Origin: Thermodesulfobacteriota bacterium
GTDB lineage: Bacteria > Desulfobacterota_D > UBA1144 > Nemesobacterales > JAJCZQ01
Reading direction: 5' to 3'
DNA length: 64,000 nt
Assembly: GCA_965203965.1 (NCBI GenBank)
Contig: CBDBDR010000017.1
Location: 544,001 to 608,000, forward strand
Numbering within the stretch: position 1 is the stretch's first letter; every line of letters begins with the position of its first letter. Under the pieces are notes generated by a model that had not been told where the DNA came from, did not search any database, and saw only the letters and a list, made by a program, of their open reading frames with translations. Positions 19,156 to 49,665 of this stretch are shown piece after piece. The translations under genes were made by a program, and so were the position numbers.

Positions 19156-20577
19156 TCATTTTGAAGACGATTCGTAACCTATGATATCAACTTTGAATTT
19201 TAAACCTAATATTTTATTCCGAGCTGGAAAAAAAGAAGAAAAAGGCACTTTTTCATTCGGTTTTATGTCAGAGTTTAACCCATTCACGCTAGTAAAGTTT
19301 TTGTAATTTATCTGACCTTTTTTATTTGTAAGTTTTGAATACAACTTATCTAAAGCTTGGTTTTTCATTGCCCAGTCTGAAAGAAGGTTCCCAGCATAAA
19401 TTTCCTGAGAATAAACAGCCACATCTTCTGAAATGTAGCCCACTTTCAACTTAACAAAACTGATTGGTTCATTTGAACGATTTACGACGCTACCCGAAAC
19501 AACATATATCTGTCCATGCTTTGAACTGATCCATCTGCCGTTTTCTTCAACAATCTCCAACATCTTCATGGATAAATTTGTATAATCCTCAATCAAGTCA
19601 GTTGCTGTAGATTTGAGTTTATTGTAATAATCATTTGGATTCTCAAAGAAAACAACCACCTCACGTCCGATTTTAGAGTAATAATCATTCGGGTAGACAT
19701 TCGATTTATCTAATAAAAATGACGAGAGTGTGATTAATACACCTGAGAAAAATAATACAATTATCAGTACGAATATTTTTCCCAAAAAACCACGAGACTG
19801 CTTTTGTTCAGAACTTTCAATCCTACTCGACTGATCTGGAGGGTCAGATTCCTCAACATCCTCTGTCATTTTATCAGACTCAGGTTTCAGTTTATCCAAT
19901 ACATCTAAATCAAATTTCAGTTCATCATTTGAAGACCCTTGAGTTTTATCATAAGAAGACTGATCTGGAGGGTCAGATTCCTCAACATCCTCTGTCATTT
20001 TATCAGACTCAGGTTTCAGTTTATCCAATACATCTAAATCAAATTTCAGTTCATCATTTGAAGACCCTTGAGTTTTATCATAAGAAGACTGATCTGGAGG
20101 GTCAGATTCCTCAACATCCTCTGTCATTTTATCAGACTCAGGTTTCAGTTTATCCAATACATCTAAATCAAATTTCAGTTCATCATTTGAAGACCCTTGA
20201 GTTTTATCATAAGAAGACTGATCTGGAGAAGCAGATGTCTCAACATCCTCATGAGGCTGTGTATCATCAATGTCTTTCTTTAACTGCTCACCTTGACCGG
20301 AAGTTGAGAAACTCGATTCTTCTACCAACTGTTCATTATAAGAATTCATTTCTTCATATAAATCTTCAATGTAGCTGTCATCAGTGTCTGACAATGGTAG
20401 AGTAACGTTTTGTTTCTCAATCTCTAATGCTTTATCGTTTTCGTGTTCATCAAAAAGCTCACCTTCAAAAAAGAAAACAACTCCACAATTCGTGCATTTG
20501 ACCTCCATTCCAAGAGGGTTTATTTCCCCCTCATCAAGCCTTATCTCAGCATCACATTCTTGACATTTAATAATCAT
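19156..20577 (-). CDS. MJ0042-type zinc-ribbon membrane protein with acidic repeat linker and DUF3426-like C-terminal domain
   Basis: CQEC...VKCTNC at the N-terminus, acidic linker, one TM (IFVLIIVLFFSGVLITL), VVSGSVVNRS...VPF domain. Confidence 0.8.
   Translation of the reverse strand: MIIKCQECDAEIRLDEGEINPLGMEVKCTNCGVVFFFEGELFDEHENDKALEIEKQNVTLPLSDTDDSYIEDLYEEMNSYNEQLVEESSFSTSGQGEQLKKDIDDTQPHEDVETSASPDQSSYDKTQGSSNDELKFDLDVLDKLKPESDKMTEDVEESDPPDQSSYDKTQGSSNDELKFDLDVLDKLKPESDKMTEDVEESDPPDQSSYDKTQGSSNDELKFDLDVLDKLKPESDKMTEDVEESDPPDQSSRIESSEQKQSRGFLGKIFVLIIVLFFSGVLITLSSFLLDKSNVYPNDYYSKIGREVVVFFENPNDYYNKLKSTATDLIEDYTNLSMKMLEIVEENGRWISSKHGQIYVVSGSVVNRSNEPISFVKLKVGYISEDVAVYSQEIYAGNLLSDWAMKNQALDKLYSKLTNKKGQINYKNFTSVNGLNSDIKPNEKVPFSSFFPARNKILGLKFKVDIIGYESSSK
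19829..20228. repeat. 129-nt perfect tandem repeat x3 plus partial copy (43-aa unit)
   Basis: gactgatctggag... starts at 19829, 19958, 20087 and 20216. Confidence 0.97.
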
Positions 20578-20805
20578 AATTTAAGCAGGTAGATTTCAGT
20601 ACCAATATTAAAATCAACTTGTAGAAGGCTATAAAATAATTCTAATGCAGTCAAGCATCTTTTATACATACAAACTTACCATAAATGTTCAAATTTACCT
20701 TCGAGCATAAGTAACAGAGACGAACAAACAACTATTGCAAACAAGTTCTTTTTTCTGTAAAGTATATTTTTAGTACTAAACGGCAAAGGGGTTAACAAAC
20801 AGAGT

Positions 20806-21759
20806 ATGCACACCAACAACCCTATATTAAAGCTGAAAAATGAAATGGACAGGCTTGTGGTCGGCCATAGCGACGTGAAAATGGCTTTACTCCTTGGTAT
20901 TGTCTCAAGGGAGCACATTTACATTGAAGGACCTCCCGGAACCGCAAAAACAATGCTGTCCGAGATAATTTCCTCCGCTGCCCAACTGAATTTCTTTTTC
21001 TACCAACTACATAGGGATACAAGACTCTCGGAGCTAATAGGCGATCTTGTAATTTCCAAGGAACAGACCGAAGAAGGTGAAATAATCAAGCAGAAGATTG
21101 TCAAAGGTGGAATTCTCAAGTCTGAAATATGTTTGCTGGACGATATATCAAGGGCCCCGGGTGAATCGCTCAACGTTTTATTGAGAATACTTAATGAGAG
21201 AAAGTTTTTTAACGAACCAATCCCACTACTTACCGCCATTGCTACAAGCAATCCGACCGCTGATGAATACTACAATGAACCCCTTGACCCTGCTAATCTG
21301 GACAGGTTCGTTCTTCAGGTAAAATCGCTTGGAATTTCTTATGGGAAAAAATGGAATGATGCAAAAAAAATAATTGAGCTTTATTCAGACAAACCACCAA
21401 GCAAGGAAATACCTGCCGCAGTGAGTAAAAAACTGTTTGATGAATATTATTCCAGAATTGGAGAGATGAAAATACCTGTTGAAGTCCAAGAAGGTCTTGC
21501 CAACTTCATTACAATATTAGTTGAAGACTATGGATTGGATGAATCCAATTCCCTGATCTCCGACAGAACATTCTTTGTAAAGTCATTAAAAATCATAAGG
21601 TCTCACGCACTTATTTCTAACAGGGAATCCTGCACTATGGAGGATTTGAAAGCCCTGAAGTATATGACTGTTTTTAGGATCCCAGAGGAGATATATAACA
21701 ATCTGGACGAAATCTTGAACAATCTTGACCGTAAAAAAAAAGTCAAGATGAACAACTGA
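20806..21759 (+). CDS. MoxR/RavA-like AAA+ ATPase
   Basis: EHIYIEGPPGTAKT Walker A, ICLLDD Walker B variant, LNVLLRILNER, ATSNP, NLDRF. Confidence 0.88.
   Translation: MHTNNPILKLKNEMDRLVVGHSDVKMALLLGIVSREHIYIEGPPGTAKTMLSEIISSAAQLNFFFYQLHRDTRLSELIGDLVISKEQTEEGEIIKQKIVKGGILKSEICLLDDISRAPGESLNVLLRILNERKFFNEPIPLLTAIATSNPTADEYYNEPLDPANLDRFVLQVKSLGISYGKKWNDAKKIIELYSDKPPSKEIPAAVSKKLFDEYYSRIGEMKIPVEVQEGLANFITILVEDYGLDESNSLISDRTFFVKSLKIIRSHALISNRESCTMEDLKALKYMTVFRIPEEIYNNLDEILNNLDRKKKVKMNN
21722..21749 (+). other. Candidate -1 frameshift / transcriptional slippage site (A9) flanked by an 8-bp inverted repeat
   Basis: atcttgac-cgt-A9(21733-21741)-gtcaagat; the -1 frame has TAA at 21732-21734 and is then open to 22916. 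Confidence 0.6.
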
Positions 21760-21803
21760 GAAAAAAACCCGACGAAGAACAGCTTTCGGAATTTGAACAG
21801 GTT

Positions 21804-22916
21804 ATGCCCGATGAGGAATTAAAGGAGAAACCTGATGAAGAATCCGACAAGGAAGCCCAGGAAGAAAGTATTTCCGAAGTTAGAAAGACTTTCTTTCAAG
21901 CCCTAAAAGAACTTAAAGACAATATTGATCAGGAAAACGACATGGCTCCTCCTGATGATTTGGATATTCCATCCGATCCAACTGGTCAACCGTTTGATGA
22001 TGGTAGCAATGAAAGCAAAGACAACAGTACAGATAAGATATTTGCGAGTAAATCAAAAAATTCCGGCAAAGATGACGACCTGAAAACACCTGGGAAAAGA
22101 AACACAGAAGGTGCTGATAACATTAAGATGATAATGAAAGTACTTGAGGGAAACTTCCAGCGAAATATTGCAAGAAGAACAAATCATCCTGGAGGTGTCC
22201 CGAGAAAATGGAAAACAATGGTTTCTTTTGATGAAGTGGAAGATATTGACCCACTTGAAGCATTTATCTGGGCTGATTGCGCATCTCCCCATCTACCAAG
22301 AGTCCAGAGGAGAGAAAAAGAGAGTCTAGGGGGTGAAATAGCGATCCTTAGGGATGTCAGTACCTCAATGATGGGAGTTTATAGTGAATGGTCTTCATCG
22401 GTTGTTCAGGGAGTTATAGAACTTGGCCGTTCAAAAAACATGAGGGTGGGTTACTTGGAATTCAATCACAAATCCTATAAATACAAGAAAGATTGCAGAT
22501 TTTTTACCAGAGATTACAAATGGATACTAAACATGTCATCTAACACTGAATGCTCCGGTAATACCAACTATGAAGATGCTTTGAGAGAGGCACTTTCGGA
22601 ATTTAGAGGCAGAGGATTGAGAAATAAGCATATTTTATTCATCACTGATGGTATCCCCACGTCCGGTGATTGCGACGTTGTCACTCAGAGAATGCTCGCA
22701 AAAAAACTTGGCGTTTGTATTCACTCTATTTTTATCGGCTCAAAAAACTACCCTAAAATTTTGCAAGTCGTCTCCGAGGAAACTATCGGCACACAATTTA
22801 TTGCATCAAGAGGAAAAGACGGCAATATAAAAATAGAAAGAAAAGACAAAGCAATAAAAAACAGTAAAGAACCGAAAATGCAGGTTGATCCTTTTATAAA
22901 AGTATTTACGAGTTAA
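21804..22916 (+). CDS. vWA-domain protein (ViaA-like) with acidic N-terminal linker; frame is open from 21735
   Basis: MIDAS DVSTS, SGNTNY, LFITDG. Confidence 0.85.
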   Translation: MPDEELKEKPDEESDKEAQEESISEVRKTFFQALKELKDNIDQENDMAPPDDLDIPSDPTGQPFDDGSNESKDNSTDKIFASKSKNSGKDDDLKTPGKRNTEGADNIKMIMKVLEGNFQRNIARRTNHPGGVPRKWKTMVSFDEVEDIDPLEAFIWADCASPHLPRVQRREKESLGGEIAILRDVSTSMMGVYSEWSSSVVQGVIELGRSKNMRVGYLEFNHKSYKYKKDCRFFTRDYKWILNMSSNTECSGNTNYEDALREALSEFRGRGLRNKHILFITDGIPTSGDCDVVTQRMLAKKLGVCIHSIFIGSKNYPKILQVVSEETIGTQFIASRGKDGNIKIERKDKAIKNSKEPKMQVDPFIKVFTS

Positions 22917-23911
22917 TTTTTCCCCTTCCCTTTTATATATTTCCTTATAGCACCGGCATGCTCTTTGTAATTTCTTGAGAAATGATGAGTTCCATTATCT
23001 TTCAAAACAAAAAACAGGTAATCGGCATCCGATGGACTTGAAGCAGCTAAAATTGAGTCTCTGCCGGGATTTGAGATGGGTCCCGGTGGCAAACCATAAA
23101 TTTTGTAGGTGTTGTAAATAGAACTAGTCTTTAGGTGCTTTCGGGTGACTCTTCCCTTGAAAGATTTTCCGTGTATATAAACAGCGGTCGGATCAGATTC
23201 AAGTTTCATTCCCTTTTTCAATCTGTTATGAAAAACGGCAGATACATGTTCTTTTTCATTGCTGTTTGCTGCTTCTTTCTCTATCATTGAGGCAAGTATA
23301 ACAATTTCATGGTCGGACAGTCCTATCCTGTTCTCTTTGCGAATTTGATCATATATATTTCTGAACCTGTCCGTCATGACTCTTATTACTTTACGAGCAT
23401 CAGTATCTTTTGAAAACATATAGGTATCAGGGTAAAGGTAACCTTCAAGGCTTTTTACCTCTGTGCCGATAAGTAGGCTCGCATAATTTCCATCCATAGC
23501 CCATCGGATAAACTCATCTCCATTTGCAACACTTTGCTCATCTAAAATTTCCGAGATCTCATACAGGTTTTTACCTTCCGGTATTGTGATCTTCCTAAGC
23601 CAAACCTTTCCACTTATAAAAGTATTTACAATTTCATTAAGACTCATACCTGAAGTTATTTTATACTCTCCAGCTTGCAGTTTGCCTTCCGAACCTTTCA
23701 GTAAAACGATCAGGAGAAACAAATGTTTGCTTCGGATAATACTGTTACTTTTAAGAATAGAACCTATTTCATCAGAAGTTGCTACCTTGGGAATTTCCAA
23801 TACTACTGAATCATTTGGATATCCATCCATGTAAACAAAGTAGTAGGCAGTTAATATAAAAAATAAAATTATCACTGTGCAAAACGTCAATATGAATCTA
23901 TTTTTCTTCAT
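22913..23911 (-). CDS. mltG: Endolytic transglycosylase MltG
   Basis: LQAGEY, TIPEG, LEGYLYPDTY, LASMIEKEA, LESDPT, GLPPGPISNPG. Confidence 0.95.
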   Translation of the reverse strand: MKKNRFILTFCTVIILFFILTAYYFVYMDGYPNDSVVLEIPKVATSDEIGSILKSNSIIRSKHLFLLIVLLKGSEGKLQAGEYKITSGMSLNEIVNTFISGKVWLRKITIPEGKNLYEISEILDEQSVANGDEFIRWAMDGNYASLLIGTEVKSLEGYLYPDTYMFSKDTDARKVIRVMTDRFRNIYDQIRKENRIGLSDHEIVILASMIEKEAANSNEKEHVSAVFHNRLKKGMKLESDPTAVYIHGKSFKGRVTRKHLKTSSIYNTYKIYGLPPGPISNPGRDSILAASSPSDADYLFFVLKDNGTHHFSRNYKEHAGAIRKYIKGKGKN

Positions 23912-48060: not shown

Positions 48061-49665
48061 ATGTCATATCTAGTTCTAGCAAGAAAATGGAGACCAAAAA
48101 CATTCAGCGATGTTACAGGTCAACGTTATATAACTATTGCATTGAAAAACGCTATAACTTCCGGAAAACTTGCCCACGCTCTTATATTCTCTGGTCCCAG
48201 AGGCGTTGGCAAAACAACCACTGCCAGAATAGTAGCCAAAGCCCTTAACTGCATTAACTTGGAAAATGAAAAATTGACGTGTGAAAACGGAGACCACACT
48301 TGTTCATTCTGCTCCGAAATATCAGAGGGCAGATGTGTTGATGTATTAGAAATAGACGCTGCATCTCATACAGGTGTGGACGACGTAAGGGAAATAACGG
48401 AAAACGTAAAATACCTCCCGGGTTCTGCAAAAAAGAAGGTTTATATAATTGATGAAGCACACATGCTGTCTCAATCGGCTTTTAATGCACTTTTGAAAAC
48501 GCTTGAAGAGCCTCCCGATCACGTACTTTTTATACTTGCAACCACGGAATCACACAAAATTCCAGCAACTATCCGGTCAAGATGCCAGAGTTATGATTTC
48601 AAAAAACTCTCAATAAACGAAATAAAGTCACAGCTTGAGCAAATCTCAGAATTTGAAGAGGTATCAATAGATCAACAAACGCTGATCACAATATCCAAAG
48701 AAGCTGACGGGAGTATAAGAGACGCACTGAGTATAATGGATCAGCTAATGGCAACATTCGGTAGCAATATCAGTTACGATGAAACTCTCAACGCACTGGG
48801 GCTTTTGGATAAAACCCATTTGTATGAACTGTTAAAAGGCATAATAGAAAAAAAAACCAGTAGATCAATTGAAACACTGAAGCATATAACCAGTCGGGGA
48901 ATAATACACAAAAGGATTGCAGACGACCTTGTAAACATGCTGAGAAATTCTCTCTTCATAAAAATCTGCGGAGATGAATTGGATATGGAATTAACCGACG
49001 ACGATATTAAAAATATTAAAAACCTTGTCTCCGGCAAGAGTGCAGAGGATATTGAGTTGCTCTTCAGTCTCGCAATTGAAAATGCCGATAGTGTGCACAG
49101 GTCATACTTCCCTGATCTTGCTCTGGAATCAATGATTATAAAGCTTGCCTCAATTGATACTACGATACCAATAAACCAGATTATGGAAAAAATAGAGAAT
49201 CTCTCTGTGGCTCTCAATAACAACACTATCCAGAACAAAAAAGTAAATGTTGCACCAACAATTCAATCCACTCAAAAAGAAACAGTTAACGATGAAGAGA
49301 AAACGGAGGAAAAAATTTTTGATACATTCACCTCTTTTATTAAAAGCCAAAATACAATATTGGGATTGTATTTGGAAAAATCAGATTCAATAACCAGAGA
49401 TGAAAAAACTCTTAAAATTGTATTTAACGACAATTCAATCAGTTTTGAAAAAATAAGTAAAAAAGACTCACTGAACAACCTGAAATCATTAGCCAGTGAT
49501 TTTTATAAGACTGAAATGAATGTCAGGGTTGAATTAAGCGACGGACAAGCATCAGCTAAACACAGTGAAAATAGGCTCGTCACAAGAGATGAAAAAACTA
49601 CGGCAGACAACCGTGTTTTCAAAGAGGCAATAAAAATTTTTGATGGAAAGATAGTTAAAAATTAG
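48061..49665 (+). CDS. dnaX: DNA polymerase III subunit tau/gamma
   Basis: LARKWRP, GPRGVGKTT, EIDAAS, IIDEAHML, LLKTLEEPP, SRC. Confidence 0.97.
   Translation: MSYLVLARKWRPKTFSDVTGQRYITIALKNAITSGKLAHALIFSGPRGVGKTTTARIVAKALNCINLENEKLTCENGDHTCSFCSEISEGRCVDVLEIDAASHTGVDDVREITENVKYLPGSAKKKVYIIDEAHMLSQSAFNALLKTLEEPPDHVLFILATTESHKIPATIRSRCQSYDFKKLSINEIKSQLEQISEFEEVSIDQQTLITISKEADGSIRDALSIMDQLMATFGSNISYDETLNALGLLDKTHLYELLKGIIEKKTSRSIETLKHITSRGIIHKRIADDLVNMLRNSLFIKICGDELDMELTDDDIKNIKNLVSGKSAEDIELLFSLAIENADSVHRSYFPDLALESMIIKLASIDTTIPINQIMEKIENLSVALNNNTIQNKKVNVAPTIQSTQKETVNDEEKTEEKIFDTFTSFIKSQNTILGLYLEKSDSITRDEKTLKIVFNDNSISFEKISKKDSLNNLKSLASDFYKTEMNVRVELSDGQASAKHSENRLVTRDEKTTADNRVFKEAIKIFDGKIVKN

Follow-up and report, generated by a model that had tools for sequence, protein, structure and literature searches.

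Are a MoxR-type AAA+ ATPase and the vWA domain that follows it in another reading frame the products of two genes, of one damaged gene, or of one gene that is decoded in two ways? The question is raised by positions 20806-22916 of the stretch of DNA analysed here (the window, 64,000 nucleotides of contig CBDBDR010000017.1 from a Thermodesulfobacteriota bacterium, assembly GCA_965203965.1), where the two frames meet at a run of nine adenines (A9). The preferred answer, to which a probability of about 0.8 is given, is that the region forms one gene with a conserved programmed slippage site at the run, giving two products: an AAA+ ATPase of 317 amino acids (aa), and a 703-aa protein in which the ATPase is continued by an acidic linker and a vWA domain.

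Reading frames and predicted products

The ATPase open reading frame (ORF), recognized from the ORF listing and from Pfam and PDB sequence matches, occupies 20806..21759 of the + strand (the 0 frame, 317 aa, the short product) and carries a Walker A motif, GPPGTAKT, at about 20929-20952. Its 3' end reads CGT AAA AAA AAA GTC AAG ATG AAC AAC TGA. The A9 run, which is the proposed slippage site, lies at 21733..21741 (+) and supplies codons 310-312 (AAA AAA AAA, or KKK), after which the 0 frame has only the tail VKMNN and the TGA stop at 21757-21759 (together 21742..21759, +). The -1 frame is closed just upstream of the run by two stops, TGA (21726) and TAA (21732), within 21726..21734 (+). Past the 21732 stop it reads KKSQDEQLRKKPDEEQLSEFEQVMPDEELKEKPDEES... 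(KKSQDEQLRKKPDEEQLSEFEQVM...), and is then uninterrupted until the TAA at 22914-22916. These features of the ORF ending, the run, the -1 stops and the open -1 frame were all as described in the initial annotation.

The -1 frame ORF (21735..22916, +; 393 codons plus stop), supported by translation, Pfam matches and a structure model, would be the C-terminal part of the long product. It specifies, in order, an acidic disordered linker, a conserved helix (SEVRKTFFQALKELKDNI), a second disordered stretch, another helix, and a vWA domain with a Rossmann-like fold. The domain was placed at residues 189-370 of the -1 frame product (22299..22844, +) by the structure model, Foldseek and alignment, and includes the D-x-S-x-S motif (RDVSTS) of a metal ion-dependent adhesion site (MIDAS) at about 22353-22367 (+). 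The first ATG of this frame, at 21804..21806 (+), opens a 370-aa ORF in the ORF listing and lies 45 nucleotides (nt) after the AAA+ stop; it is a candidate independent start, the position of which varies among orthologues.

Standard decoding of the A9 message would reach the stop five codons past the run and give the 317-aa MoxR-type AAA+ ATPase. If the message gained one extra A, most likely through RNA polymerase slipping on the 9-nt A/T hybrid, the -1 frame would be read instead, and ribosomes shifting -1 on A_AAA_AAA might make an additional contribution. Either event would be expected to produce a protein with AAA+, acidic disordered linker and vWA/MIDAS parts. A9 plus one A gives 312 + 391 = 703 residues, precisely as many as in the in-frame homologues nearest to it (P0001-P0005, with 77-79% identity in the AAA part). 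Both proteins presumably accumulate.

Run length in DNA and RNA contigs

Four sequencing runs were compared over 20700-23000, as consensus contigs only, the RNA and DNA coming from different studies. A DNA run from an independent study (X3, depth about 75) spans the whole region, is identical to the window and has A9, which answers in favour of the window sequence the concern that the raw DNA might carry A10. Two metatranscriptomes gave contigs with A10, that is with one extra A, and no other letter different: X7 over 20790-22517 and X8 over 21453-22149. A third, X1, gave a contig of 20748-22215 with A9. An extra A of the kind that the initial annotation had proposed to look for in transcripts is present in contigs of two RNA runs of three, set beside DNA from another study. 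RNA contigs start at 20748-20797 and extend no further than 22869, so that they keep to the gene and leave out its neighbours, while the DNA contig continues past; this is a weak hint that they derive from real transcripts. The gene is an example for which public metatranscriptomes may reveal recoding directly in an uncultivated marine bacterium.

How far the run and the frame relation are conserved

An orthologue was found in 39 of 41 genomes of the same order, at 64-83% identity. After both halves of the 39 excised loci had been located by tblastn, the vWA half proved to be -1 in 29, +1 in one (L036) and in frame in nine, and a run of A9-A11 stood at the same KKK codons in all 39, in-frame fusions included. 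With a further 80 genome-contig loci, and L066 lacking the vWA half, there were 118 usable loci, 91 of them distinct, all from Candidatus Dadabacteria or from metagenome-assembled genomes labelled 'Thermodesulfobacteriota'. The vWA half was in the -1 frame in 74 of the 91 (A9 in four, A10 in 44, A11 in 25, and L081 with Ns within a run of at least 11 A), in frame in 15 (A9-A12), and in the +1 frame in two (L036 and L063). The run measured A9-A12 in 90 of the 91, the remaining one being L081. Lysine codons elsewhere in these AAA ORFs comprise 988 AAA and 841 AAG (46% AAG); within the run AAG is absent, and all three lysine codons are AAA in every locus. Homologous loci thus show either a conserved A run with the -1 offset or in-frame fusions, as had been suggested as a check, and the fusions keep the run. 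The conserved run and frame relation support the original proposal of one gene, with -1 recoding at the A run and products of 317 and about 703 aa.

Among the -1 loci, 73 have a clean run, and their 0-frame tails extend 3-8 codons past it. The first ATG of the vWA frame lies 11-131 codons past the run in these loci, and at least 59 codons past it in 36 of them; 34 have neither ATG, GTG nor TTG before codon 51, and in 61 the first ATG is not preceded by a motif of Shine-Dalgarno (SD) type. The post-run peptide can be aligned between in-frame and -1 loci, through a SEF[DE] motif and then a helix, ARKTFFQALKEL. Such a conserved but start-less coding sequence is, at the level of sequence comparison, strong evidence that reading of the vWA frame begins at the run.

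These data bear directly on one alternative, namely two ordinary adjacent genes, in which ATG 21804 would serve the vWA protein as an independent or re-initiation start and the run would do no more than encode KKK. MoxR and vWA proteins usually have genes of their own, the ATG is not far beyond the AAA stop, and GC-rich relatives without a run do have an AAA ORF stop followed by a vWA match (L145, L147, L188, L197, L199 and L200). For the window gene this is nevertheless very improbable, as the start position is not conserved, the conserved peptide upstream of the ATGs aligns with the linker of in-frame fusions, and it would remain unexplained why the run uses AAA codons alone and why the -1 relation is constant. 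That ATG 21804 has no clear ribosome-binding site is true, but the argument that the initial annotation drew from it is weak, because SD-like motifs are rare in this genome (present at 166 of 730 long ORFs, or 23%, against 11% at control positions).

Another possibility is that the gene is really an in-frame fusion, and that the break comes from an error in sequencing or assembly or from decay into a pseudogene. Homopolymers are error-prone, and in-frame homologues of 703 aa exist at 77-79% identity. The 1.99-Mb genome has 76 runs of at least nine A, of which 20 are flanked by open frames of at least 100 aa; 19 of these 20 are in frame, so the assembly is not generally breaking genes at A runs, and the MoxR-vWA run is the sole case in which the frame changes. 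The independent DNA run also has A9, the -1 state recurs in 74 genomes, among them single-chromosome assemblies and assemblies with MEGAHIT- and SPAdes-style contig names (the assembler being inferred from the names), and the vWA frames stay open for about 390 codons. Error or decay is accordingly the least probable of all the explanations considered. The A9 run by itself is not beyond chance, the motif having 5 matches in the window against 12.7 expected from shuffles; its position and conservation are.

Annotation of most Dadabacteria records two entries for this gene, an 'AAA family ATPase' and a 'vWA protein' with a missing or wrong start, so that protein databases lack the 703-aa long product.

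Changes of frame and relatives beyond Dadabacteria

The history of the frame relation was followed on a FastTree tree of 103 rows (89 Dadabacteria and 14 outgroup), from which L081, with Ns in its run, and L063, with a truncated vWA half, were left out. Long branches meet at the outgroup join, as the tool warned, but the count of flips does not depend on the root. Frame state required at least 6 changes, against a mean of 26.5 for shuffled labels. Two pairs of near-identical sisters differ by a single A: L012 (A10, -1 frame) and L113 (A11, in frame), and L061 (A11, -1 frame) and L059 (A12, in frame). Of the +1 loci, L063 has a run one A shorter than in its -1 relatives, while L036 has A9 like its closest tree relative L037, and its frame difference may lie outside the run; a third, L122, from an outgroup described below, has two A's more than its in-frame relatives. 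All three could result from misassembly, natural variation in length or decay of the copy, or could be served by +2A or -1A slippage. The tolerated flips would fit a slippage efficient enough for both products to be made from either genomic frame. If slippage feeds all frames, lineages could flip the genomic frame by one A in either direction and keep both products, and in-frame relatives would obtain the short form from slipped messages instead, the arrangement of dnaX. In dnaX, a one-base change can reverse which product needs the slip (PMC5009743).

Close relatives that differ by one A (the two sister pairs, and also L036 and L063) are what a contingency locus would show, in which phase variation at the DNA level alters run length and switches between a split, AAA-only state and a fused AAA-vWA state without any recoding. 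The A10 contigs from RNA could then reflect A10 genomes in other samples. This is quite improbable, since 74 of 91 species-level genomes are in the -1 state and clades are uniform, which is not the pattern that a fast switch gives. In addition, in-frame clades retain both the run and out-of-frame stops placed shortly after it, the DNA contig (depth 75) has A9, and apart from the extra A the A10 RNA contigs match the window in every letter.

A metagenome scan seeded with fused relatives of about 640 aa, some of which come from Entotheonellaceae and Tectomicrobia, recovered 80 loci, 69 of them analysable. Sixteen were Entotheonellaceae-like (79-85% identity to P0066, GC fraction 0.52-0.58), and all sixteen carry a run of the type 'CGA AAA AAA AAA GTA' (A10 in 14, A11 in one, A12 in one). 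The vWA half is in frame in 15 of them and in the +1 frame in the A12 locus, L122. In the 15 in-frame loci a +1 frame stop directly follows the run without exception, and 14 have a -1 frame stop after 3 codons. Because the run is succeeded by GTA, CTA or ATA and then by G or A, an out-of-frame TAG or TAA persists through changes between V, L and I. A further 41 run-bearing loci comprise 34 in the -1 frame and seven in frame.

The run is absent from the other 12 of the 69 loci. Five of these are in-frame fusions of high GC whose linker differs (L143, L152, L183, L189 and L194), and seven have the two-gene layout of an AAA ORF stop with a vWA match downstream (the six loci already named and L184), at GC 0.60-0.73, with AAA parts 55-60% identical and with neither A run nor KKK. 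The wider family thus has three forms, namely separate genes, plain fusions and run-bearing genes, and the run is retained whichever frame the genome encodes.

A metagenome contig of GC 0.50, L190, which is 58% identical, reads 'GTA AAA AAA AAC TAG': the 0 frame stops at once behind its A9 run, and the vWA half is in the -1 frame. It may extend the recoded layout beyond the Dadabacteria and Entotheonellaceae-like groups.

Probable mechanism of the proposed recoding

Recoding at the run could take place during transcription or translation. The initial annotation had proposed a -1 recoding event; recoding at the run is upheld, but RNA polymerase slippage is more likely than a ribosomal -1 shift, or acts besides it. 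Transcription is probably, though less securely than the slippage site itself, the main step. It is favoured because the run is never shorter than nine, whereas a ribosomal site needs seven, because A10 occurs in contigs from RNA runs, because there is no conserved structure and an SD-like GAGGA is found only in some lineages, and because +1 and in-frame alleles are tolerated. Efficient transcriptional slippage has been reported at a hybrid length of 9 (PMC5009743). RNAalifold found 0 conserved pairs between -60 and +90 around the run in 24 diverse loci, a weak negative given that the alignment is coding and gappy. In the same 24-locus alignment the upstream GAGGA-type element was present in some lineages only, and it is absent from the window.

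The competing mechanism is purely ribosomal programmed -1 frameshifting of the Escherichia coli dnaX type, in which the mRNA stays A9 and tRNA-Lys slips on A_AAA_AAA. Every locus has a slippery heptamer in phase (A_AAA_AAA or A_AAA_AAG), and the poly-A sites published for chelatase genes are read as programmed ribosomal frameshifting and are active in E. coli reporters (PMC3711429, PMC9227772). The heptamer would suffice for this, yet the run is never below nine in 90 Dadabacteria and 16 outgroup loci. Neither a conserved 3' structure nor a conserved SD-like 5' element accompanies it, and A10 contigs from RNA are unexpected with an unchanged message. An exclusively ribosomal mechanism is thus unlikely.

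Several points weigh against the preferred reading of one gene with a programmed slippage site. Three other sources could explain the A10 contigs, since the RNA evidence consists of contigs only and is from another study than the DNA: a strain with genomic A10, carry-over of DNA into the RNA library, or slippage in reverse transcription or the polymerase chain reaction. One of the three RNA runs shows A9, and contigs give no ratio. Sequence alone cannot separate a ribosomal -1 shift on A_AAA_AAA from transcriptional slippage, because any run of nine or more contains the heptamer in phase. A mechanism of +1A or -1 shifts alone would not rescue the +1 variants L036, L063 and L122. The related genomes do not count as independent samples, and the tree comes from FastTree only, with long branches meeting. 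The gene also lacks an operon partner, its flanks lying on the other strand.

If slippage does supply both forms, their common AAA+ part suggests what they may be for. The short and long forms would co-assemble via the AAA+ ring into mixed hexamers bearing sub-stoichiometric vWA adaptor arms, and the efficiency of slippage would set the short:long ratio and hence the number of arms. This proposal is by analogy. The products of BchI/BchD and of fs-chlD genes (chlD genes with a frameshift) are thought to form mixed AAA+ rings with sub-stoichiometric adaptor subunits. The natural series of -1, in-frame and +1 alleles is suited to asking how slippage efficiency and subunit stoichiometry are linked.

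More tentatively, and with the odds somewhat against it, the run may be an ancient RNA polymerase slippage device common to Dadabacteria and Entotheonellaceae-like bacteria. It would determine how many subunits of a mixed MoxR hexamer are motor-only and how many carry the adaptor as well, a ratio that evolution would retune by single-A flips. If so, lineages would differ in whether the gene is 'dnaX-like' or 'reverse dnaX', the gene would represent a second, independent AAA+-vWA family with the chlD trick, and sub-stoichiometric vWA arms would be suggested as a general design rule of AAA+-vWA machines.

Protein families and structure

The protein is a MoxR-class AAA+ with an associated vWA/MIDAS partner domain. 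Among Pfam models, the AAA+ ORF matched bpMoxR (8e-21, 74.4 bits, cut-off 27), AAA_5 (4e-19, 69.4 bits, cut-off 22), AAA_3 (45.2 bits, cut-off 27) and AAA_lid_8 (26.3 bits, cut-off 22.8), and the -1 frame ORF matched VWA_2, VWA_3 and VWA. The best PDB sequence matches of the AAA+ half were 2r44 (1.6e-17) and RavA (1.3e-13), and no BchI or ChlI chain was among the 42 matches. Walker A is intact, and the NP, DRF and DRTF motifs, which we take to be the sensor-1, arginine-finger and sensor-2 motifs, are conserved.

The Walker B region of the AAA+ half reads LLDDISR (window about 21136-21153, residues about 111-116), with D112 and D113 invariant in 12 diverse family members. In the usual form, hhhhDE, the catalytic glutamate is at the second position. 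The second Asp of the family may put full ATPase activity in question.

An AlphaFold model of the window -1 frame product, made with 58 aligned sequences, had a predicted local distance difference test (pLDDT) score of 71 and a predicted template modelling (pTM) score of 0.61. In -1 frame product numbering, it shows the disordered acidic linker at 1-42, a helix at 44-67, the second disordered stretch, a helix at 124-146, and a confident vWA fold at 189-370 (pLDDT mostly 80-95). Residues D207, S209, S211, T277 and D305 of the vWA domain are invariant in the 58 sequences and presumably form a complete MIDAS site. The Foldseek fold search of this product returned generic vWA domains (Cav alpha2delta, BatB, TFIIH p44, Rpn10 and NorD, including the NorD chain of the NorQD complexes 9qhd, 9qhe and 9qh8) and no specific relative.

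More specific assignments were also considered. The description 'RavA/MoxR-type' given in the initial annotation is right as to the MoxR class, but the protein is not a RavA orthologue, as it scored 60.9 bits against the NF010054 cut-off of 681 and covered only profile positions 28-285 of 498. A chelatase AAA+ domain was rejected on PF01078 (Mg_chelatase; 18.7 bits against a cut-off of 20.3, and matching only the P-loop at residues 18-56), and a full-length chelatase on TIGR02442 (28 bits against a cut-off of 779, for the fused homologues P0006 and P0066). A search with profiles of the NCBIfam type found no chelatase model that matches the window proteins. CobN/ChlH was not found in the genome, which is 99.5% complete (best PF02514 score 18.5 bits against a cut-off of 24.5), while control genomes were matched. 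A defence system, brought to mind by the Pfam name bpMoxR, was rejected because PADLOC gave only an IetA P-loop match of 18 bits.

Genomic context

The MoxR-vWA gene is flanked on one side by genes for IMPDH, a 161-aa ORF and a Zn-ribbon repeat protein, and on the other by YceG/MltG and ProB. All of these are on the - strand, leaving it the sole + strand gene among them, and it is therefore probably monocistronic. YceG adjoins it in 74 of the 91 loci and the Zn-ribbon protein in 10, a matter of synteny only. A scan of 20500-23100 for promoters and terminators gave 3 promoter-like sites against 6.6 expected, with none between the AAA+ and vWA ORFs, and is uninformative either way.

The Zn-ribbon neighbour (19156-20577, -) is a protein of 473 aa with an N-terminal zinc ribbon (Zn_ribbon_4/5), a hydrophobic segment, and three nearly identical tandem copies of an acidic unit of about 48 aa (...DPPDQSSYDKTQGSSNDELKFDLDVLDKLKPESDKMTEDVEES...).

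Runs of at least nine A are scarcer than composition predicts (in the window, the 5 matches against 12.7 given above; 76 in the genome), which suggests that slippery homopolymers are avoided in general. The window has another A9 run in its copy of dnaX, the classic slippage gene, at 48848-48856 (+), where it is in frame at codon 263 of an ORF (48061-49665) that matches the Pfam models DNA_pol3_delta2, DNA_pol3_gamma3 and DNAX_ATPase_lid. Both other frames soon reach stops there, but the run lies within domain III and not after it, and may be incidental.

Comparison with known systems

The nearest counterparts by protein class are the two-gene pairs of a MoxR AAA+ and a vWA protein, RavA-ViaA, NorQ-NorD and CbbQ-CbbO. 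They resemble the window gene in combining a MoxR-class ATPase with a vWA/MIDAS partner, and differ in being separate genes with their own starts, where the window has a single recoded, or elsewhere fused, gene. BchD of Mg-chelatase consists of AAA+, an acidic proline-rich linker and an integrin-I/vWA domain, and works with an AAA+-only partner ring, BchI. This architecture is shared with the long product. BchI and BchD are encoded by two separate genes, have a ChlI-class ATPase and depend on the substrate subunit BchH/ChlH, which was not found in the window genome.

With respect to gene expression, one close parallel is fs-chlD. Poly-A frameshifting in 'magnesium chelatase' genes has been measured at 10-63%, with 11 A's giving 63%, and in-frame fusions of these genes exist in other species (Antonov et al. 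2013, PMC3711429). The fs-chlD concept was developed further by Kuznetsov et al. (2022, PMC9227772), who included genomes lacking chlH/cobN. Like the window gene, a single fs-chlD gene gives a short AAA+ and a long AAA+-linker-vWA product through a -1 overlap at a poly-A or A_AAA_AAR site (PMC3711429, PMC9227772, PMC5009743). As in the window family, there are in-frame fusions elsewhere, and some fs-chlD genomes are without chlH/cobN, the function there being unknown. In contrast to the ChlI-class fs-chlD proteins, the window AAA+ is MoxR-class and its genome is without a CobN/ChlH match. The fs-chlD sites are described with downstream structures, none of which is conserved at the site of the window family (24 loci), and in the window family the run is kept in the in-frame lineages too. 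The AAA+ class is different and the chelatase-specific tests (PF01078, TIGR02442 and ChlH/CobN) failed, and this is therefore the same kind of recoding as fs-chlD in a different family. The idea of the initial annotation, chlD-like logic in a non-chelatase MoxR system, agrees with this result, chelatase models being below their cut-offs and MoxR Pfam models above them. No description of a recoded MoxR-vWA family was found in the open-access literature. It would add a second AAA+-vWA family, MoxR-class and without a chelatase partner, to the few cellular genes in which poly-A slippage sets the ratio of products.

The other parallel is dnaX, where the tau and gamma forms arise by transcriptional slippage on a 9-nt run in Thermus thermophilus and by -1 programmed ribosomal frameshifting at A_AAA_AAG in E. 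coli (Atkins et al. 2016, PMC5009743). Short and long AAA+ forms, a homopolymer of 9 and nearby stops in the other frames are common to dnaX and the window gene, and the in-frame Entotheonellaceae-like loci share the stop layout described for Thermus dnaX (PMC5009743). The differences are that family and function are unrelated, and that in most Dadabacteria it is the long form that needs the slip, which according to the same source is the rarer arrangement for dnaX. Recoding of this kind is thus already known from dnaX and fs-chlD, and involves no new principle; what is new to it is the MoxR-class family.

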